A DNA stretch of 64,000 bases, taken from positions 130,698 to 194,697 of the forward strand of contig JAAXUA010000003.1 of assembly GCA_013336275.1 (NCBI GenBank). Direction: 5' to 3'. Source of the stretch: Candidatus Falkowbacteria bacterium (GTDB lineage Bacteria > Patescibacteriota > Patescibacteriia > Patescibacteriales > GWE2-39-37). How positions within the stretch are numbered: the stretch's first letter is position 1; every line of letters starts with the position of its first letter. This document shows positions 41,579-50,340 of this stretch, one piece after another. A program made the position numbers and the translations under genes. The notes under the pieces were generated by a model that made no database searches, had not been told where the DNA came from, and worked only from the letters and a program-made list of their open reading frames with translations.

Positions 41579-41736
41579 GCAGTTTTGGCTGATTTTAGTA
41601 TTGACTAATAATAAAAATCATGCTTTAGTATATGATTGCCGTTTTTTGGCAAATGTTCTTAAAAACAACAAATAACTATGGTGCAGATGAGCTGCAACAT
41701 ATCACAACGCCCAAGAGGCAACGAAAGGAGAAAGTG

Positions 41737-43005
41737 ATGCAAAAATGCAACTGTAGGCTGGGAGGGAAGGATTTGACGAGCGCGGTGTTGACGTATAACC
41801 AGTTTTTTGACGACTTGAAGAAGTGCTTCGTCGGACGGGATCGGGTGATAGATAATCTCCGATTTGCCATGGTGCAGAAACAGCACCTCCTGACCTTCGG
41901 ACCTCCGGGAACCTCCAAAACCGCCATCTTCGACGTCCTGTACAGCGGTTTGACCGAGGCGAACGGCTTCCATGCCGAGCTGTCGATGTTCATGACCGAG
42001 GACGCGCTTTTCGGACCCTACAACCCCAAGAAGATGAGGGAAGAAGGCGTATTGGAGCACAACGTTTCCGGCATGCTGCCGGAAGCGAACGTGGCGCGCC
42101 TCGGAGAATTCCTGGACGCCAACATGCCGCTGCTCAGGTCGACCTTGTCGGCCTTGAACGAACGGCGCATGGTGCGGGGAAGGCAGAATCTGAGCATCCC
42201 GCTCATTACAGCCTACTGTGATACCAACACCAACCCCGGGACTTTCCTGGAACGCCACCCCGAAGCCTGGGCAGTGCTCGACCGTTTCCTTTTCATGGCC
42301 TACGTCGACTACCTGTCTGACCCCGCAGAAATCACCGAGATGCTGCTTCGCTTCCAGGGAGGCAACGTCACCAACCTGTCCGGACGGCTTTCGATCAATC
42401 TGATCAACGAACTGTCGCGCCTGACGCTTGAGCCGCCATCGATCATCAAGAGCGAATTGATTTTCAGGAAGCTGGCTCAGGGTATGCAGGAATACCGCAT
42501 CCAACGACGCGCCGCCATCAGCGGCGATAAGCTCCCGGGAATAATCCTTCCGGAGATTTCTGATCGGCGGCTTTGCTGGGCCTCACAGGTTGCCGAAGTA
42601 AACGCCATCTTGAACGGCCGCGAGGAAGTCGTAGCCGAAGATATCGTGGCCCTGAAACAGGTGCTCGGTACCACCGCTGCTGAAGAAGAGATGTGGGTAA
42701 AAATCGCTGCCAAGATCATCGAAGAGGTGAAGGAAGAGCAGAAGATGCAGCTTGACCACGCGCAGTACATCGCCCTTGAAGGCCTGATCAAAGAGCTCGA
42801 CCAGATCGACCCGTCGGCAGCTGCTGACATCACGGCGCTGAAGCAGCTTGGCGAGAATCTCATGTCCCTGAAAAGGCAAGTTGAGATCATCGTTCCGGAA
42901 AACGACCAGGTAGCTTCGCTTTCAAAAAGGGCCTCCGGCATAATCACTGACAAGACTTCAGCTATCAGGGGACACGCAGCGACATTTGCCGGCATGACCA
43001 ACTAA
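41737..43005 (+). CDS. RavA/MoxR-like AAA+ ATPase with long helical C-terminal region
   Basis: GAAAGGAG SD. Walker A GPPGTSKT. LPEANVARLGEFLDANMPLLRSTLSALNER aligns without gaps with my recollection of RavA [36 protein letters not shown] sensor region. The track ORF begins at 41632. Confidence 0.8.
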   Translation: MQKCNCRLGGKDLTSAVLTYNQFFDDLKKCFVGRDRVIDNLRFAMVQKQHLLTFGPPGTSKTAIFDVLYSGLTEANGFHAELSMFMTEDALFGPYNPKKMREEGVLEHNVSGMLPEANVARLGEFLDANMPLLRSTLSALNERRMVRGRQNLSIPLITAYCDTNTNPGTFLERHPEAWAVLDRFLFMAYVDYLSDPAEITEMLLRFQGGNVTNLSGRLSINLINELSRLTLEPPSIIKSELIFRKLAQGMQEYRIQRRAAISGDKLPGIILPEISDRRLCWASQVAEVNAILNGREEVVAEDIVALKQVLGTTAAEEEMWVKIAAKIIEEVKEEQKMQLDHAQYIALEGLIKELDQIDPSAAADITALKQLGENLMSLKRQVEIIVPENDQVASLSKRASGIITDKTSAIRGHAATFAGMTN

Positions 43006-43013
43006 CCCAGGAG

Positions 43014-43976
43014 GTGATCGCTTTGCTTTTACCATTATTAGCAGGCGCCGCAGCTGTTGCAGCGGCCGCAGCATTGGCCTGGTATCTCTGGAAGAAAATC
43101 AGGAATAGCCAGGAAGAACAGCAGCAAGAACAGAGCGGTTTTCCCGGGAATCAAGGAGAAGGAGGAGGATCGAGAGGCGACAATCAGCAATCAGGACCGA
43201 GCCAGGAAGAACGTGAACGGCGCGCTCGCGAAGACATGGCGCGCAAGAACGAACTGTTGCGCTCGATAGTCAAGTCGATCGAGTTTTCGACCCGCGAAGT
43301 GGTTTCTGATATCCAGCTGCCCGGGACTTTACCCAGGCAATCGATCGTGCCGACCTCGAATTACAATGTCAGGCCGATCAAAGGTGCGGGCGAGTTCTCT
43401 TCGATACTCCCGTCGGCCCACATGCTTGATGATGAACAGTTTTATGGCCGCCTTTCCGCCAACAACTTGCTGGTGTCAGAATATCACGAGTATTACGGCA
43501 GCGGACGTCGCGTCCTTTTCGCCGCTTTCGACGGATCGGGCAGTATGGAGAAATACGGGCGCGCCCAGTGGGCCATCGGCCTTTGCGAGGCGATAATCGA
43601 TCGTTGTATCGAGCAGCAGGCCGAGCTCTACCTCTTGGTATATTCCGGAGTAATCAAGGGCGTGTATCACGTTTTTGACCGCAAGTCGGCCGAGGCGGTG
43701 AAGAGGAAGCTTAGGGAAATTCTCAGCCCCGAGGGAGGTACCGATATCAACCTGGCGCTCGACACCATCTTCGATATGATCAAGTCGGGCAAGTTCGACG
43801 AGGCCCGCGCCCTGCTGGTGACCGACGGAACAGAATCGGTCGATGAGGAACACATCTTGCAACGGCGCAAAACTGAGAAGGTCTTCCTTCATACGGTCAG
43901 CATCGCCGGGGAAAGGGATGATCTGCGCCGGGTTTCCAGCCGCTTCGACCAGTTGGCCATGTTCTCCGGCTCATAG
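43014..43976 (+). CDS. membrane-anchored VWA-domain protein (ViaA-like partner)
   Basis: N-terminal TM (LLLPLLAGAAAVAAAAALAWYLW), Q/E/G-rich linker, and a VWA domain with MIDAS residues DGSGS...GGTD...TDG. The true start may be TTG 43023, 8 nt after AGGAGG. Confidence 0.8.
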   Translation: MIALLLPLLAGAAAVAAAAALAWYLWKKIRNSQEEQQQEQSGFPGNQGEGGGSRGDNQQSGPSQEERERRAREDMARKNELLRSIVKSIEFSTREVVSDIQLPGTLPRQSIVPTSNYNVRPIKGAGEFSSILPSAHMLDDEQFYGRLSANNLLVSEYHEYYGSGRRVLFAAFDGSGSMEKYGRAQWAIGLCEAIIDRCIEQQAELYLLVYSGVIKGVYHVFDRKSAEAVKRKLREILSPEGGTDINLALDTIFDMIKSGKFDEARALLVTDGTESVDEEHILQRRKTEKVFLHTVSIAGERDDLRRVSSRFDQLAMFSGS

Positions 43977-44115: not shown

Positions 44116-47100
44116 ATGTTTCTAAAAGACCAAGAAGTACAACAGGTTTCGGGGGTGACACCGCAAGAAAGCGTTGCCAAGACCCCTAATTTTAAAAAAA
44201 TCATCGTTGCAGCGCTCGCGTGTCTGGTTGTTGCCGGCGCCGGATTGGCGGCCTTCAGTTTTTTGAGTTCGCAAAATGACGCGACTGGAAAGCTCAAGCT
44301 GTCATTGTCGGTTAAAGGGGCTGACCTTAACGGCATTGAAAAGGGCGCGGCCTTTATCCTGTCTTCAAACAAGAAATTATCCGCAGGAGAAATCGAAAAG
44401 AATTTGAAATTCGACCCGCAGGTAAAATTCGAAGCAAAAGAAAAGAAGTCTTTGCTTACGTCATTGGTGAATAGCGTTCTGGCTGCCAGCCAAGGCGGCG
44501 CATTCAATAATGAGTATGAGCTTACGCCCAAGGAAGAATTATCGGATGGGGTGATATATAAGATTCAGACCGCCACCGGCACCGAGATGCAGCTTGATCA
44601 TGATTATTCTTGGGCCTTCAATGTCAAAGAGGATTTCGATATCGATGAATCATTGCCGAACAATGAGGCGACCGGGGTGCCGGTCAACACGGGAATCGAG
44701 GTGACGATGAACCGGTTGGATATCGGTAGTGACGCCGGAAAATATTTCGCCATCGAGCCGAGCATCAAGGGTCGATTCGAGGTTGGAATAAACAAGATCA
44801 CTTTCGTGCCCGAGGGCGACTTGAAAGAAAAAACGTTGTACAAGGTCACGATAAAGAAGGGCTATCAGGCTGGCGAGAAAAATGAAGAGCTCATGGAGGA
44901 TAAGTCATTTTCTTTTGAGACCGCCACTGGCGATTCTGGCGCATACGCGCCGAGTATGTCATGGGGCAATGATTATTTTGAACTATCGACTGATAAGGAA
45001 GGATTTTTGGAGGCAAGCGGCGACGCCACCACATCGGAGGCAGTGTTTAGCCGATACGCCGATACAGCAGGATTTTTAAAAGATTTTTATGATTATCGCG
45101 ACCGCATGTATGGCTGGTCGAACTTCAATAAGGAGCCCTTCAAGCCTGGCTCCGGAGTGCAAGAGGTCGCCAAGTTCAGGCCGGAGTTGCTGAAGCGCGC
45201 TGAGGGTGACAGCTATGGATTGATCAAGCTGCCACGTAAATTGGACGCCGGTTTTTATGTGGCCAAGCTGTCAGTCGGAGATGATACGGATTACGCTTTC
45301 ATCAGGGTTTCTCCATTGGCGTACTATTATTCGGAAATCAACGGTGATGGTCTCATTTGGGCATATGATTTTGCCAATAAAAAACCTTTTGCCAGCGTCA
45401 GGGTGAGTTTGCTTGATAAGGCAGGAACCGAGAAGCAGCTGGGGCAGACTGATAATGACGGCCTGCTAAAGTTTGATTCCAGCTCGGATAAGGATGATAA
45501 TTCCGGCACGACCTTGCTCTTCAAGGGGGAAGGTGTTGGCGAAACAGTTGCTCCCGATGCCGGGCGCATCATGCAGAAGCGTCGCAACTATTTTCAGGGT
45601 TATCTTAATACTGATCGTTACGCATATCGCCTGACGGACACGGTTCATTTTTGGGGAGTGGTCAAAGGCAGGAGCTTCGACTTGAGGCAGAAGAAAGTCA
45701 AAGTCCGTTTGGATGACTATATTGAAAAAGAGGTCATGGTTTCGCCATTCGACACGATCGAGGGGCAGCTTGATTTCGCCGGACTTCCTTCGGGGTACCA
45801 CAATCTTGTTGTCAGCTATGACGACGAGACGATTACCCAATCCGGAATCGAGGTCTTTTCTTTTGAAAAGCCGCTTTACAAGATAGAGGTTGTGCCAGAA
45901 AAGAGCTTTTCTGTGACGGATGTCCCGGTTAAGGCCAAAGTGAAGGTTAATTTTTTCGATGGCACACCGGTCAAAAACATGGATTTGAATTATTCCATTT
46001 ATTGGCGCGGTGATAATAATGGAACCGTCAGGACCAATGATCAAGGAGAAGCCGAACTCTCCTACACCCCCGGTTATTATTTTGAAGAGACTAGCGACCA
46101 ATATTCCGATTCTTGGACGACTTATCCCAACAGTCTGAGATTCTCGGTCAAGCCGCAATTGCCGGAGGAGGGCGAGATTTGGGGAGAGGCTTATGTCAGT
46201 ATTTATGCCCCCAAGGTCTATCTGCAATCCGAGGCTTCAGAAAAAGGCAACGCCTTGGTGTTCAAGAGCAAGGCTAACGACCTGGAGCTGGCAACGAGCT
46301 CTGAGGAAAACATGATCGGCAGGCCGGCCGTCGGAATCAAGGTTTTGGCCAAAGTTGTCCGGTATTATTATGAAGAAAGACCAGACGGGGAATATTATGA
46401 CCCGATCGAGAAAGTTAAAATCAAGAAGTTTGTTTATGAATTAAAGAAGGAGACAGTCAAGGAGGCCGAGGGCACGAGCGATCAGAAGGGCGAGTGGTCG
46501 GTGGAGGTAGACAAGAAAGAAATAAAGAAATTCGGCTACCTTAAAACCATCTTTTCGACCCAGGATAGCAACGGTAAAAAAGTGATGAGCTCCGCCCAGT
46601 CTTATAACTACTATCCGAACGATAACAGCGCATTGAATCTGGAAAATGCCGACCTCGAAAAGACCCCAGGCATTTCCTACAAAATCGGTGATAAGGTTAA
46701 TTTGCGGGTGGTCATGACTGGCACCAAAAAGCCGGTCGATGACCGGACTTTAATTATCAGCTTCCAGGAACGGTTGCGAGACGCGAAGCTGGTCAGCAAG
46801 CCGGAATTCAGCGAGGATTTTTCCGCGGAGCACCTACCTTCAATGACGTATATGGCCGTCAAGATGATGCCGAGCGGCTTCATTGAAAGTTATTATATTA
46901 CGGCGTCGTATAAGGACGAGGAGAATAAGCTGTCTGTCGAAATCGCACCCAACAAGGAAAGGTACAAGCCCCGCGAAGACATCAATCTTGATATCACGAT
47001 AAAGAATAAATCAGACCAAGGCGTCAAGGCAGTGGCCAACGTTGCGGCCGTCGATGAATCGCTATTCAGTGTGACGCCTTGGGGCTATGGCGGAGAGATT

Positions 47101-49518
47101 TTGAGCTCATTATATTCAGACATCATGGCTTATCCCAACTCCTTGTCCACTCGCTATGTTATCGATTATCGGAACGGCGCGGAGAAGGGTGGTTGTTTCG
47201 TCGCTGGCACGGAAATCAACCTCGCCGATGGTACGAAGAAGAAAATAGAGGAGCTGCGAGTCGGCGATGAAGTGTCGACTTTCGAAAAAGATAATTCTCC
47301 TACCAGAGCCAAGAGCGTGATCCAGGGCATATCATCACATTTGGTTGATGGCTACCTCGTGATCAACGGTCAGCTGAAAGTTACGCCTGAACACAAGATC
47401 ATGGTCAGCGGAGAATGGAAAATGGCCGGTGCCGCCAGGGTGGGAGATCTCTTGGCCAATGATCAGGGTGAGTCTGAGAAAATCAGCGAAATAAGATATG
47501 TCGGATCCAGGAATGCCAGGGTTTATAATATTATCGTCGGACGATACCACACCTATTTCGCTCAGGGTTATTATGTCCATAATGCCGAAAAGGGCGGCGG
47601 CGGGGATGTCAGGAATTTTTTCGAGGACACGCCGCTGTATAAGCAGATAGAGTCGGATGACAATGGCCAGCTCAAAGCCTCGTTCAGGGTACCGGACAAT
47701 CTGACTAGCTGGAGAGTTTCTGTTAACGCCTATAGTCCGGAAAGCTTTAGCGCTGGCAGCCAAGACAAGCTCATTCCTGTTGGATTACCGCTGTTTGCCG
47801 ATGCCGTGGCGGCCAGAAAGTATCTGACGGGCGACTCGCCCATCATTAAAGTCAGAGCTTTCGGCACCGAGTATAAGAAAAATGAGCCGATTGAGTTCAG
47901 CGTGACGAGCGATAGCTTGAAATTGCAATTCGCGACCACGACCAGCTTGAACGAAGTGGCGGTGAGTCTTGGCCGTCTGCCCAAGGGAAGACATAGCCTG
48001 ATTCTCCGGGTCAAGCAGGGAGAGCTCAAGGATGCTTTGGAAAAGAAATTCGAAGTCATAGATAATTATTTCAAGGAATTGAAGACCGATAGCCGGCTGA
48101 TTACCGATGGCCAGGCCGGGCTTAAGGGGAATAGCGGCAGTTTCACTGACATTGTTTTCGTCGATGAAGGCAAAGGCAAATTCTTCGAAAGGCTTTTGGG
48201 ACTCAACTGGCAATCAAGCGTACGTTCCGACATTCAATCGGCATCATATCTGGCGGCCAAGACTTTGGATGAATATTTCTATGGAGGTGAAAAAAAATTC
48301 AGCCAAGAGATCAGCTTAGCCGGTTATCAGTCCCGTGAAAACGGGTCAGGTCCGCTGGCAGTTTTCCCCTACAGCAAGCCTAATCTGGCCTTGACCGCGG
48401 AGATCGCTGATGCCATGCCGGAATCATTCGACAATTCATGGGCGATAAACGGCCTAGAAGCGCGATTACGCGAGCAGAAGCTTGATGATAAAGAGACGGC
48501 TCAAGCGCTTTGGGCGCTAGCGGCCCTGGATAGGCCGCAGCTGCCGCTGATTAACTACCTTAAGGATAGTGCCAGCACCTCGCTGGAAGCCAAGGTTTAT
48601 CTGGCCTTGGCCCTGAGCCGAGTGGGCGACGTTGAAGGTGCCCGCGCCTTGTATTTTGATCAGCTGCTTCCGCAGACGAAAGCTGACGGAGGACAAGCGC
48701 ATTTAGAGGTTTCTGCCGTCAAAGAGAAGAACGTCAAAGTTACCGCGATCTTCGGCGTTCTGGTATCGCGCATGGAAGCTGGTATGGACGGCAATAATCT
48801 GAAGTCGATCATGAACTACCTCTCAGCCAATCAGCCTAAAGATGACACGATAACGCTCGAGGAGGCCATGATCACGAGAAGTGAGATCGCTAAGGCCGAT
48901 CAATCTGACAGCTCCCTCGATTTCCGGACGTCAGACCGTAACGGTAAGATTGATTTGAGCAAGGGGCAGTCGTTCCAGCTGACTATTTCCGAACAAGAGA
49001 TGCAAACATTGTCTTTTAGCAATATCAAAGGATCGGCCAGAGCGATCAGTTATTACGAGGATTATGCTGACCCGGCCAAAATGACGACCAGCAAGTCGGT
49101 CAGCGTTGAGCGGCAGTACTTGGTCAATGGCAAAGAGGCGACCGAGTTCAATGAAGGTGATCTTATCACGATCCGCTTGACGCCTCGTCTTTCGGCCGAA
49201 GCTCCCGACGATTCCTATCAGCTGGTTGAGTATCTGCCGTCAGTATTCAAACCCATCGTCCGCGATTATAGCCCGGACATGCAGACCGGCAGCAATTGCG
49301 ATCCGATCTGGTATCCGGTAAGGACGACCGACGAGGCCGTATATTTCAGCATCGGCAAATGGTTCCAGTCGTCGAATGTTTGCCAGCAACGGACAATCAA
49401 TTTCCGCGCCAGGGCTATCGGCAAAGGAAGCTTCAAAGCGCAGCCAGCAGCGATACAGTCTTTGAATGATGTGGGCATAATGAACTTGTCGAAAGAGAGG
49501 ACCGTTATAGTCAAGTAA
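44116..49518 (+). CDS. signal-anchored alpha-2-macroglobulin-family protein (MG-domain array, no CxEQ thioester) with an embedded Hint domain
   Basis: 1800 aa. N-terminal KK + TM anchor. MG-type motifs (DRYAYRLTDTVHFWGVVKG; VANVAAVDESLFSV). A2M-domain hallmark RNFFEDTPLY...FRVPDNLTSWRVSVNAYS. Helical TED-like region without C-x-E-Q, and only 4 Cys in total. C-terminal VRTTDEAVYF...RARAIGKGSFKAQPA resembles the bacterial A2M end domain. Confidence 0.8.
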   Translation: MFLKDQEVQQVSGVTPQESVAKTPNFKKIIVAALACLVVAGAGLAAFSFLSSQNDATGKLKLSLSVKGADLNGIEKGAAFILSSNKKLSAGEIEKNLKFDPQVKFEAKEKKSLLTSLVNSVLAASQGGAFNNEYELTPKEELSDGVIYKIQTATGTEMQLDHDYSWAFNVKEDFDIDESLPNNEATGVPVNTGIEVTMNRLDIGSDAGKYFAIEPSIKGRFEVGINKITFVPEGDLKEKTLYKVTIKKGYQAGEKNEELMEDKSFSFETATGDSGAYAPSMSWGNDYFELSTDKEGFLEASGDATTSEAVFSRYADTAGFLKDFYDYRDRMYGWSNFNKEPFKPGSGVQEVAKFRPELLKRAEGDSYGLIKLPRKLDAGFYVAKLSVGDDTDYAFIRVSPLAYYYSEINGDGLIWAYDFANKKPFASVRVSLLDKAGTEKQLGQTDNDGLLKFDSSSDKDDNSGTTLLFKGEGVGETVAPDAGRIMQKRRNYFQGYLNTDRYAYRLTDTVHFWGVVKGRSFDLRQKKVKVRLDDYIEKEVMVSPFDTIEGQLDFAGLPSGYHNLVVSYDDETITQSGIEVFSFEKPLYKIEVVPEKSFSVTDVPVKAKVKVNFFDGTPVKNMDLNYSIYWRGDNNGTVRTNDQGEAELSYTPGYYFEETSDQYSDSWTTYPNSLRFSVKPQLPEEGEIWGEAYVSIYAPKVYLQSEASEKGNALVFKSKANDLELATSSEENMIGRPAVGIKVLAKVVRYYYEERPDGEYYDPIEKVKIKKFVYELKKETVKEAEGTSDQKGEWSVEVDKKEIKKFGYLKTIFSTQDSNGKKVMSSAQSYNYYPNDNSALNLENADLEKTPGISYKIGDKVNLRVVMTGTKKPVDDRTLIISFQERLRDAKLVSKPEFSEDFSAEHLPSMTYMAVKMMPSGFIESYYITASYKDEENKLSVEIAPNKERYKPREDINLDITIKNKSDQGVKAVANVAAVDESLFSVTPWGYGGEILSSLYSDIMAYPNSLSTRYVIDYRNGAEKGGCFVAGTEINLADGTKKKIEELRVGDEVSTFEKDNSPTRAKSVIQGISSHLVDGYLVINGQLKVTPEHKIMVSGEWKMAGAARVGDLLANDQGESEKISEIRYVGSRNARVYNIIVGRYHTYFAQGYYVHNAEKGGGGDVRNFFEDTPLYKQIESDDNGQLKASFRVPDNLTSWRVSVNAYSPESFSAGSQDKLIPVGLPLFADAVAARKYLTGDSPIIKVRAFGTEYKKNEPIEFSVTSDSLKLQFATTTSLNEVAVSLGRLPKGRHSLILRVKQGELKDALEKKFEVIDNYFKELKTDSRLITDGQAGLKGNSGSFTDIVFVDEGKGKFFERLLGLNWQSSVRSDIQSASYLAAKTLDEYFYGGEKKFSQEISLAGYQSRENGSGPLAVFPYSKPNLALTAEIADAMPESFDNSWAINGLEARLREQKLDDKETAQALWALAALDRPQLPLINYLKDSASTSLEAKVYLALALSRVGDVEGARALYFDQLLPQTKADGGQAHLEVSAVKEKNVKVTAIFGVLVSRMEAGMDGNNLKSIMNYLSANQPKDDTITLEEAMITRSEIAKADQSDSSLDFRTSDRNGKIDLSKGQSFQLTISEQEMQTLSFSNIKGSARAISYYEDYADPAKMTTSKSVSVERQYLVNGKEATEFNEGDLITIRLTPRLSAEAPDDSYQLVEYLPSVFKPIVRDYSPDMQTGSNCDPIWYPVRTTDEAVYFSIGKWFQSSNVCQQRTINFRARAIGKGSFKAQPAAIQSLNDVGIMNLSKERTVIVK
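47194..47583 (+). other. Hint / bacterial intein-like (BIL) domain, residues 1027-1156 of the A2M-like ORF
   Basis: CFVAGTEINLADG (Cys1, block A), LKVTPEHKIMV (T-x-x-H, block B), VYNIIVGRYHTYFAQG (block F), YYVHN (block G). The +1 residue is Ala. AEKGG flanks both junctions. Confidence 0.8.
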
Positions 49519-50340
49519 ATGAGTATCAAGAAAATTGCGCTACTGTCTCTGGTTTTTATTCTTGCCGCCGAGCCTAGCTTCGCTGGCGCCAGTTTATCTT
49601 ACGAATACAGGGAGTACAAAAGTTTGGTCGGACGGCAGAAGAACACCGGCTACAGCCTCCGCACTAAGACACCTTTTATCGGCGTTGTTTCCCACCACTT
49701 GCCTACGGCCTCCCCTTTAATAGATAATTTTTACTATCAGCTCAGAAAGGGGCGCCCCAACATCAAAACTTTCGTCGTAATCGGCCCGGATCATTCTGAG
49801 CGGTGCCGGCAGAAATTTAGCGTCAGTGATTCCAACGTTTCCACCATGTATGGCGAGTTGCAGTCTGATAAGCGAGTCTTTCAGGCCCTGCTGTCGGCAG
49901 GAGCAAAAAGCGAAGCGGGGTGTTTCGAGGGCGAACATTCAATCGGAATCCAAGCTAACTACATCCGCAAATTTTTTCCGACAGCGAAAATCGTGCCGAT
50001 CCTGTTATCATACTCAGCCAAGCAGCGTGATTTTGAGATATTGATAGAGACATTAAAAAAAAATCGGGCCGACATTTTCGTCTTGGCCAGCGTTGACTTC
50101 AGCCACTATCTAGAGGCAAGGCAGGCAGATGCAGTCGATGCAGTCAGCCGGAAGATGATCAACGCTCTTGATGGCTCATCTTTTACTCTGAAGCAGATCG
50201 ACTCGCCAGCAACAATCAAGATAATCTTGGGGCTGGCTAAAAAGCTCCAATTAAAGCCGGAAATTATCGAACATAGGAACTCGTTTGATTATAACGGCGC
50301 GTACAAGAATACGACCAGCTATTTTTCGATTTTGTTCTAA
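49519..50340 (+). CDS. Memo/LigB-like (AmmeMemoRadiSam-B family-like) protein with Sec signal peptide
   Basis: Signal MSIKKIALLSLVFILAAEPSFA. The motif order VVSHH..., VVIGPDHSE, GEHSIGIQANYIRKFFP, IVPILLS, SVDFSHY mirrors the Memo-family His-containing motifs. The ATG abuts the A2M stop (TAAATG). Confidence 0.55.
   Translation: MSIKKIALLSLVFILAAEPSFAGASLSYEYREYKSLVGRQKNTGYSLRTKTPFIGVVSHHLPTASPLIDNFYYQLRKGRPNIKTFVVIGPDHSERCRQKFSVSDSNVSTMYGELQSDKRVFQALLSAGAKSEAGCFEGEHSIGIQANYIRKFFPTAKIVPILLSYSAKQRDFEILIETLKKNRADIFVLASVDFSHYLEARQADAVDAVSRKMINALDGSSFTLKQIDSPATIKIILGLAKKLQLKPEIIEHRNSFDYNGAYKNTTSYFSILF

Follow-up and report, generated by a model that had tools for sequence, protein, structure and literature searches.

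A Hint domain in the bait loop of alpha-2-macroglobulin homologues from CPR/Patescibacteria

The 64,000-nucleotide stretch of Candidatus Falkowbacteria bacterium DNA analysed here (contig JAAXUA010000003.1, positions 130,698 to 194,697; hereafter the window) carries the gene HGA34_03710, whose product is an alpha-2-macroglobulin (A2M) homologue with a complete Hint domain embedded in its bait loop. The same arrangement characterises a family of hundreds of proteins from the candidate phyla radiation (CPR)/Patescibacteria. We consider it probable that the Hint is a vertically inherited, catalytically competent autoprocessing domain of the bacterial intein-like (BIL) or PT-HINT type, resident in the bait loop of membrane-anchored cell-surface A2M homologues throughout the CPR, and not a substitute for a lost thioester, as the initial annotation of the window had proposed.

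The open reading frame (ORF) of 1800 amino acids (aa) is 100% identical to the NCBI entry 'hypothetical protein HGA34_03710 [Candidatus Falkowbacteria bacterium]'. Its layout, in window coordinates and with the confidence of the structural model given as the predicted local distance difference test (pLDDT), is as follows.

44116..49518, + strand: A2M-family ORF with embedded Hint domain, 1800 aa; fold and profile matches to ECAM, fold match to SaA2M
44194..44265, + strand: N-terminal signal-anchor or transmembrane helix, about aa 27-50, placed by hydrophobicity, with predicted topology
44638..44922, + strand: Big_5 Ig-like domain, aa 175-269 (Pfam PF13205, E 1.6e-9, above the cut-off)
46675..47070, + strand: A2M bait-region domain (A2M_BRD), aa 854-985 (PF07703, E 8.7e-10, 39.5 bits against a cut-off of 22.7)
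47137..47193, + strand: disordered N-side linker, aa 1008-1026, ending G-A-E-K-G-G (pLDDT < 50)
47194..47583, + strand: Hint/BIL domain, aa 1027-1156, 130 aa (Pfam PT-HINT and Vint above the cut-off; AlphaFold2 fold)
47584..47610, + strand: C-side linker A-E-K-G-G-G-G-D-V, aa 1157-1165 (pLDDT < 50 for aa 1156-1163)
47611..47751, + strand: start of the 'A2M' domain, aa 1166-1212, with the hallmark R-N-F-F-E-D-T...P-D-N-L-T-S-W-R of macroglobulin (MG) domains MG6-alpha/MG7
48166..48894, + strand: helical domain resembling a thioester domain (TED), without the thioester motif, aa 1351-1593 (all-helical in the AlphaFold2 model)
49102..49461, + strand: C-terminal MG domain (bMG10-like), aa 1663-1782 (PF17973, E 8e-4, below the cut-off)

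HGA34_03710 is a member of the alpha-2-macroglobulin/TEP superfamily. The AlphaFold2 model of aa 601-1800, built with 33 homologues, reached a mean pLDDT of 82.7, and its best PDB matches in Foldseek were ECAM (5a42, E 3.7e-44) and SaA2M (4u48, E 8e-43), followed by eukaryotic A2Ms (A2ML1), C3/C4/C5, TEP1 and CD109. The family profile matched the ECAM sequence with an E value of 1.4e-23; the bait-region domain and the C-terminal MG domain each aligned to the ECAM counterpart (the latter with a domain i-Evalue of 7.3e-10), and the Hint site mapped to the Gly-rich bait stretch of ECAM. The Pfam match to the 'A2M' (MG7) domain PF00207 at aa 1174-1212 is barely above the cut-off (21.8 bits against 21), and the bMG3, MG2, MG4 and bMG10 matches all lie below it. 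The most hydrophobic 19-mer of the protein (aa 29-47, mean Kyte-Doolittle value 2.64) is the sole segment of its kind, and everything beyond the N-terminal helix is predicted to be extracytoplasmic. Only four cysteines are present (36, 1027, 1728 and 1756). A search of the whole protein sequence for the C-x-E-Q motif gave no match, and by this criterion HGA34_03710 is not a Type I bacterial A2M; moreover, aa 1351-1593 contain neither the motif nor any Cys and lack a Pfam TED match. The Pfam order A2M_BRD-Hint-A2M, the ECAM profile and the Foldseek results thus bear out the initial annotation in two respects, that the flanks are genuine A2M and that the Hint lies at the bait position of a thioester-less homologue.

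The Hint domain reads CFVAGTEINLADG...LKVTPEHKIMV...VYNIIVGRYHTYFAQGYYVHN, followed by Ala. It carries Cys1027, Thr1090-x-x-His1093 (T-P-E-H) and His1155-Asn1156, and is without an endonuclease insert. It is matched by Pfam PT-HINT (PF07591) at aa 1037-1155 (E 9.1e-10, 39.4 bits against a cut-off of 27.7) and Vint at aa 1026-1103 (E 3.3e-8, 33.9 bits against 27). Modelled alone with AlphaFold2, the domain gave a pLDDT of 85 and a predicted template modelling (pTM) score of 0.80, and its top Foldseek match was BIL2 of Tetrahymena BUBL1 (6y75/6tmm; E 7e-12, template modelling (TM) score 0.78, 30% identity). The BIL domain of Clostridium thermocellum (2lwy, E 2.7e-9) came next, and mini-inteins and Hedgehog ranked after it; the TM scores to BIL2, CthBIL and the NpuDnaB intein were 0.73-0.78, and Hedgehog 1at0 matched at E 1.3e-5. 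BIL2, whose N-extein ends ...RGG, is also the best PDB match by sequence (2.5e-8). In the model of aa 601-1800, the Hint is a separate beta-rich domain. It hangs on linkers of aa 1008-1026 and aa 1156-1163, and nowhere else nearby is there a long stretch with pLDDT < 50. The complete and separately folded Hint at 47194-47583 read from the DNA is thereby confirmed by Pfam and by the predicted structure. Residues 1082-1210 of PDB 8w20_A also match the Hint (E 2.3e-6); the structure is of a 1368-aa protein entered as 'Intein C-terminal splicing domain-containing protein', maybe another large non-intein host of Hints of this type.

The modelled fold, the Cys nucleophile and the block-B T-x-x-H place the domain in the Hint superfamily, and it holds all the residues required for an N-S acyl shift and Asn cyclisation. 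It also has the C-terminal His-Asn, the absence of Cys, Ser or Thr at +1 and the absence of a homing endonuclease that mark BIL domains. We assign it to the BIL type rather than to canonical inteins because the catalytic residues are invariant and a +1 nucleophile, as had been noted from the DNA, is missing (Ala1157). A canonical class 1 intein was rejected on the same residue, Cys, Ser and Thr at +1 being rare family-wide. A PT-HINT of a polymorphic toxin was rejected as MG7, the TED-like domain and MG10 follow downstream, with no toxin domain, and the next gene is Memo-like. A Hedgehog/Hog autoprocessing domain was rejected as the Hint is internal and ends in H-N, after which come 644 aa of A2M domains. 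With the BUBL type the domain shares the GG directly before Cys1 (...E-K-G-G / C, the slash marking the junction). A Lys that might act as acceptor lies at +1 to +3, and the N-extein is not ubiquitin-like by Pfam. Gly1026 is the residue whose carbonyl would form the thioester, and Lys1159 is encoded at nucleotides 47590-47592.

The pentapeptide AEKGG stands at both junctions (gcg gag aag ggt ggt / tgt ... cat aat / gcc gaa aag ggc ggc), and its two copies differ at four of five third codon positions. This duplication in different codons, which had been pointed out before, is real in HGA34_03710. It does not extend to the family, where the exact AEKGG...AEKGG pair is confined to the HGA34_03710 subclade, the flanks read G-A-E-x-G-G / C ... 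H-N / (x)-[E/D/Q]-K-G-G, and the general rule is GG before and x-K-G(G) after the domain.

To delimit the family, 1.84 billion cluster representatives were searched with a profile of residues 851-1300. About 140 of the best 150 matches were proteins of 1700-1930 aa in which bait domain, Hint and MG7 follow one another unbroken, and in at least 155 thioester-less CPR/Patescibacteria proteins the Hint occupies the same site. A full-length search with HGA34_03710 gave, besides the query, 13 Hint-bearing homologues (30-77% identity, about 1780-1810 aa) and 19 Hint-less ones, tallies that are not an unbiased census since all wide searches used Hint-containing queries. In a scan of GTDB species representatives, the same architecture was found in metagenome-assembled genomes (MAGs) labelled Falkow-, Parcu-, Sacchari-, Doudna-, Moran-, Peregrini-, Magasanik-, Gracili-, Collier- and Gottesman-bacteria, Peribacteria and Paceibacterota; some MAG labels, e.g., 'uncultured Gammaproteobacteria', are probably unreliable. 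The recurrence in hundreds of independent assemblies led us to reject an assembly or frameshift artefact. What had looked like a singular case is thus a family, whose members automatic pipelines have already labelled with both domains.

Among the aligned thioester-less members, 155/155 have Cys1, the block-B His and the terminal His-Asn. The block-B Thr is kept in 153/155 (Ser in 2) and Phe2 in 153/155, and Gly occupies position -1 in 146/155 members and position -2 in 137/155. Beyond the domain, Arg1166 is conserved in 155/155 and the position of Lys1159 is Lys in 152 of the 155, while the counterpart of this Lys on the N-side flank is variable (G61, K43, R14). Lys occurs somewhere at +1 to +3 in 270/272 sequences. 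At +1, nearly all members have A, D, E or Q, with S, T and C very rare, and in ten full-length members the Hint Cys1 is the sole cysteine. The nearest Hints outside A2Ms (Omnitrophota, Planctomycetota, DPANN archaea and others) show a similar GG / Hint / K(GG) pattern, with Lys at +1 in 32/46 and Gly at -1 in 28/46.

Hints of the same subfamily were also seen in tandem arrays of up to about seven domains linked only by K-G-G or K-G (...VHN-KGG-CF...), in P0154, P0163, P0175, L088 (6812-9538), L080 (6827-8368) and L065, from Omnitrophota and other non-CPR MAGs.

The main evidence on the relation of the Hint to the thioester came from a sister clade, in which at least 119 proteins combine a Hint at the same site with an intact thioester motif. 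An example is L058 (...GGGGG / CFVAGT ... WVHN / QKGMTRQSFKDTAYW ... YPYGCVEQT). A search with the L058 protein retrieved 320 relatives, of which the best 120 were analysed: PT-HINT was matched in 120/120, TED also in 115/120, and both junctions together with a YPYGC[V/I/T]EQT-type motif were found in 119/120. Among these 119 thioester-plus-Hint proteins the motif is exactly YPYGCVEQT in 88, and in 89 the cysteines number exactly two, one being the Hint Cys1 and the other that of the thioester. They belong mostly to Microgenomates-type CPR (Gottesman-, Davies-, Woese- and Woyke-bacteria). Thioester-plus-Hint A2Ms also lie in bins of the non-CPR phyla Verrucomicrobiota and Chloroflexota, namely in L048 (4838-9973, Limisphaerales-labelled MAG) and L058/L092 (Limnocylindrales-labelled MAG); their nearest relatives are CPR Microgenomates (about 60% identity), and mis-binning or horizontal transfer is possible.

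The C-x-E-Q motif is absent from all 155 members of the thioester-less clade and from all 33 closest relatives of HGA34_03710, Hint-bearing or Hint-less. In a p-distance neighbour-joining (NJ) tree from a Hint-masked alignment, the Hint-less proteins appear at several places within the Hint-bearing radiation: P0016 groups with P0014 and P0048 (bootstrap 0.89), P0015 falls inside the HGA34_03710 clade (bootstrap 0.92), and monophyly of the Hint-less proteins received 0/100. At the insertion site, these Hint-less relatives keep a single GAE[K/R/M]GG in a continuous chain, which by its sequence is the product expected from recombination between the flanking repeats. As they are nested among Hint-bearing proteins, the joined chain appears to be functional. 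Scoring the homologues for Hint and C-x-E-Q, which the initial annotation had recommended, therefore showed the two features to be uncoupled: because they co-occur, and because Hint-less relatives are nested, the Hint would be older than the loss of the thioester in the HGA34_03710 lineage and would have been lost several times. The at least 119 relatives with both features, like the nested relatives with neither, leave the Hint unsupported as a provider of the thioester missing from this A2M, and we rejected such a replacement as an evolutionary rationale.

The inheritance of the Hint follows that of its host. Pairwise identities of the Hint and of the rest of the protein are correlated with r = 0.91 among the 14 closest members, and between distant members the Hint is conserved slightly better than the host protein. 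Against the nearest relative, L010, pN/pS was about 0.26 for the Hint and about 0.14 for its flanks; these values are given in place of dN/dS, which was uninformative as dS was saturated. By these measures, the Hint behaves as a vertically inherited, constrained domain and not as a recently arrived mobile intein. An NJ tree of the Hint domains alone gave a bootstrap of 0 for monophyly of the A2M-Hints; the mean identity of 0.42 between A1 and A2, against 0.35 between A and other Hints, is a hint of their common origin.

What the domain is, where it sits, how conserved and widespread it is and that it occurs together with the thioester are established; its activity and its products are predicted as follows. 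After export and folding, Cys1027 would perform an N-S acyl shift that converts the Gly1026-Cys1027 peptide bond into a thioester, and cyclisation of Asn1156 would cut the C-terminal junction. Canonical trans-esterification would be impossible with Ala at +1. In a first route, (a), the Gly1026 thioester would be taken by the epsilon-amine of Lys1159, as in BUBL BIL2, or by the alpha-amine set free on Ala1157, as happens when BIL domains splice with no nucleophilic side chain; the A2M halves would be re-tied and the 14-kDa Hint discarded. In a second route, (b), water would resolve the thioester, and the result would be two chains, as in C3, kept together by the MG6 sandwich that they share. 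Route (a) is slightly favoured, because an untethered bait would be expected to discharge the A2M in the thioester-bearing relatives. Activation of ECAM is triggered by untethering of its disordered bait (PMC4498604), so uncompensated self-cleavage would be costly in those members. Excision with re-tethering is favoured also because of the BIL2 precedent, with its GG N-extein and the near-invariant Lys, and because Hint-less descendants have a continuous chain. In BUBL BIL2, according to the authors' summary, the ...GG thioester is resolved by a lysine epsilon-amine to give an isopeptide (PMC8616854), and from this closest solved relative transfer to lysine gains some support. BIL domains without a +1 nucleophile either cleave or splice (PMC7664689).

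Several points weigh against the reading of the Hint as a competent resident domain. The activity of every family member is a prediction from its residues, and conservation of the catalytic residues is equally what would be expected of a purely selfish element that must excise. BIL products are reported to be mostly cleaved rather than ligated (PMC7664689). The geometry of the flanks is of low confidence in the AlphaFold2 model (pLDDT < 50), and the NJ trees are rough, with weakly supported deep nodes. Finally, the GG and K flanks may be a general junction preference of the Hint subfamily and not mark a nucleophile, a preference that fits either a shared Lys-nucleophile chemistry or a purely kinetic requirement.

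The main rival is maturation into two chains, which we regard as possible although distinctly less likely; self-cleavage of this kind was one of the two outcomes raised in the initial annotation, beside transfer of the N-terminal chain to a nucleophile. Both junctions would be cut, the thioester hydrolysed and the Hint lost. Two chains would remain as a non-covalent heterodimer, one of about 1026 aa, anchored in the membrane and ending ...AEKGG, and the other of 644 aa, starting AEKGGGG..., much as when furin cuts pro-C3 at the topologically equivalent position. The model matches the chains of C3/C4/C5, both Hint linkers are disordered and the +1 residue is non-nucleophilic, all in keeping with such a product. 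We also take the insertion point of the Hint to be the site of C3/C4/C5 processing and of their anaphylatoxin (ANA) domain. The products of BIL domains, mainly N- and C-cleaved (PMC7664689), agree with it as well, but an untethered bait would trigger the conformational change and waste the thioester of the thioester-bearing relatives (PMC4498604). Two-chain maturation would moreover leave the near-invariant Lys behind the junction without a role, and the Hint-less relatives have a continuous chain at the site.

If the Hint is the active resident domain that we favour, it might also provide the family with a second, ATP-independent covalent chemistry, an extension that we put forward tentatively and regard as possible but less likely than not. 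As in BUBL, a thioester would form at the C-terminal Gly of the membrane-anchored N-chain, which would then be handed over to a lysine epsilon-amine. Within the same molecule (in cis), the acceptor would be the invariant Lys behind the junction, and an isopeptide would close the bait and leave a free N-terminal stub. Between molecules (in trans), the acceptors would be lysines of host-cell surface proteins or of proteases that attack the cell, and these proteins would become tethered to the CPR surface. In thioester-bearing members, excision of the Hint could in addition set off the conformational change of the A2M from within, with no protease needed.

It is improbable that the Hint is a neutral or selfish passenger, an old mini-intein derivative that removes itself and adds no function. 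Any embedded self-excising element must keep its catalytic residues, the absence of an endonuclease fits a degenerate, non-mobile remnant, and several lineages have lost the Hint cleanly while keeping the gene and its Memo partner. Yet, although clean loss is possible, the domain has been retained at one site across divergent CPR, down to about 30% host identity, and over long range is more conserved than the host. Inteins typically persist in conserved active sites, whereas this Hint sits in the most variable loop of its host. Traceless splicing is, furthermore, inefficient without a +1 nucleophile (PMC7664689). Least probable of all is a trans-conjugation warhead, a reading close to that of the initial annotation. 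A persistent Gly1026 thioester at the exposed bait would here be attacked by a lysine or other nucleophile of a second molecule, for instance a protease, a surface protein of a host cell or the cell wall, which would become covalently tethered to the membrane-anchored N-terminal chain. GG ends the N-extein in nearly all members, BUBL BIL2 is summarised as joining ...GG N-exteins to lysines of several substrates without ATP (PMC8616854) and A2Ms classically trap proteases by thioester-lysine chemistry (PMC4498604), but a normal thioester beside the Hint in at least 119 relatives makes compensation unnecessary, a conserved cis Lys two to three residues away would compete with any trans nucleophile, and relatives with neither thioester nor Hint persist.

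The neighbours of HGA34_03710 encode MoxR, VWA, Memo and IF3, three of them placed as follows.

41632-43005: bpMoxR-type AAA+ ATPase, just upstream of the A2M-Hint gene
43014-43976: VWA protein gene, just upstream of the A2M-Hint gene
49519..50340, + strand: Memo-like gene abutting the A2M stop codon (PF01875, E 2.9e-22)

The Memo-like gene is a conserved partner of the A2M family, standing directly downstream in 33/40 A2M-Hint loci with room for it. Downstream copies, which often overlap the stop codon, lie at L001 5490-6284, L003 13337-14221, L006 10874-11770, L008 8382-9197, L009 11235-12152 and L090 10066-10938. Memo adjoins Hint-less relatives too (P0016, P0022), as well as a thioester-bearing member, where the gene order is rhomboid, A2M-Hint, Memo and PGA_cap. 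Lengths of 570-650 aa are reached by several Memo ORFs at this downstream position, and a fusion with PGA_cap (CapA-like) was seen in one nearby Memo. No known functional link between Memo and A2M was found. In the nine inspected loci Mag-like genes were not seen, and neither a mag operon nor PBP1c adjoins the A2M gene. The MoxR-VWA pair (41632-43976) was rejected as a part of the system, as it is kept only in the nearest relative L010 (2073-4326).

Two further neighbours were recorded. A rhomboid protease gene (L090 4302-4958) lies directly upstream of the thioester-plus-Hint A2M on a Daviesbacteria contig. An extracytoplasmic function (ECF)-type sigma factor gene (Sigma70_r2/r4_2) directly precedes the two Hint-less A2M-like genes P0015 and P0022, whose start it abuts or overlaps (L005 7450-7998 and L009 5490-6017); transmembrane-anchored A2M-like proteins next to ECF sigma genes might double as anti-sigma sensors.

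In the searchable literature, no paper was found that joins a macroglobulin with a Hint domain or PT-HINT, and macroglobulin combined with intein or intein-like returned only papers with unrelated titles and abstracts, in agreement with the earlier remark that no described A2M with an embedded Hint was known. A2M-domain surface proteins of CPR have been discussed as a putative defence against host proteases in Vampirococcus, with the Hint unmentioned (PMC8080830). The architecture can thus be seen in databases through public pipeline labels, but the literature searched yielded no description of it. It fuses two of the best-known protein-thioester systems, A2M/complement and Hint/intein, at the loop that controls A2M activation, in CPR/Patescibacteria, which are episymbiotic and whose surface proteins mediate contact with the host cell. 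If the Hint is active, these would be the first A2Ms with an autocatalytically processed bait, with a bearing on the gating of A2M activation, on the purpose of BIL domains and on the protection or attachment of CPR cells. The family itself offers natural comparison sets (Hint with thioester, Hint without thioester, and neither), and the conserved Memo partner, with PGA_cap, may help to place the bacterial Memo family in a functional setting.

Compared with known systems, HGA34_03710 has the same fold of multiple MG domains, bait, MG7, helical TED-like domain and C-terminal MG domain as the bacterial A2Ms of Type I (ECAM/YfhM, SaA2M) and Type II (P. aeruginosa MagD/YfaS), which are membrane-anchored and extracytoplasmic, as is predicted for it. 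The Type II proteins lack the thioester, like HGA34_03710 (PMC5764988), and Type I proteins possess it, like the sister clade. Unlike in both types, the bait loop is broken by a 130-aa Hint, the anchor is an N-terminal transmembrane helix and not a lipobox, and the CPR/Patescibacteria hosts have no outer membrane. The six-gene mag/yfa operon of Type II is missing, so that HGA34_03710 is not a Type II protein by this criterion although it lacks the thioester; a PBP1c neighbour is missing as well, and a Memo-like gene, with PGA_cap often behind or fused to it, lies downstream instead.

The complement proteins C3/C4/C5 match the HGA34_03710 model in fold. They presumably resemble it also in having an extra domain and chain processing between the two halves of MG6, just before an R/S-x-F-P-E-[ST]-W-type strand. 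However, they are cut there by furin and convertases and not by an embedded autocatalytic domain, and ANA is unrelated to Hint. Pretoxin-HINT (PF07591) is the best-scoring Pfam model, and an NCBI homologue is named 'polymorphic toxin-type HINT domain-containing protein', but the domain is followed by MG7, the TED-like domain and MG10 rather than by a toxin.

The BIL2 of BUBL1 (6Y75/6TMM) has an N-extein ending ...(R/K)GG before residue 1, as do the A2M-Hints. It uses a lysine acceptor according to the summary of that work (PMC8616854), and the A2M-Hints have a near-invariant Lys past the C-terminal junction. The A2M N-extein, in contrast, is an MG chain of about 1000 aa that is not ubiquitin-like, the proteins are bacterial and not from a ciliate, and an isopeptide is proposed here by analogy. 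With the BIL domains (C. thermocellum BIL4, 2LWY), the A2M-Hint shares the Hint fold, Cys1, T-x-x-H, H-N, the lack of a +1 nucleophile and the lack of an endonuclease, and BIL domains likewise lie in the variable region of large secreted or surface proteins (PMC7664689). Whereas BIL domains are scattered in hypervariable proteins, the Hint described here has an A2M as its host and holds a position that is fixed over hundreds of orthologues.

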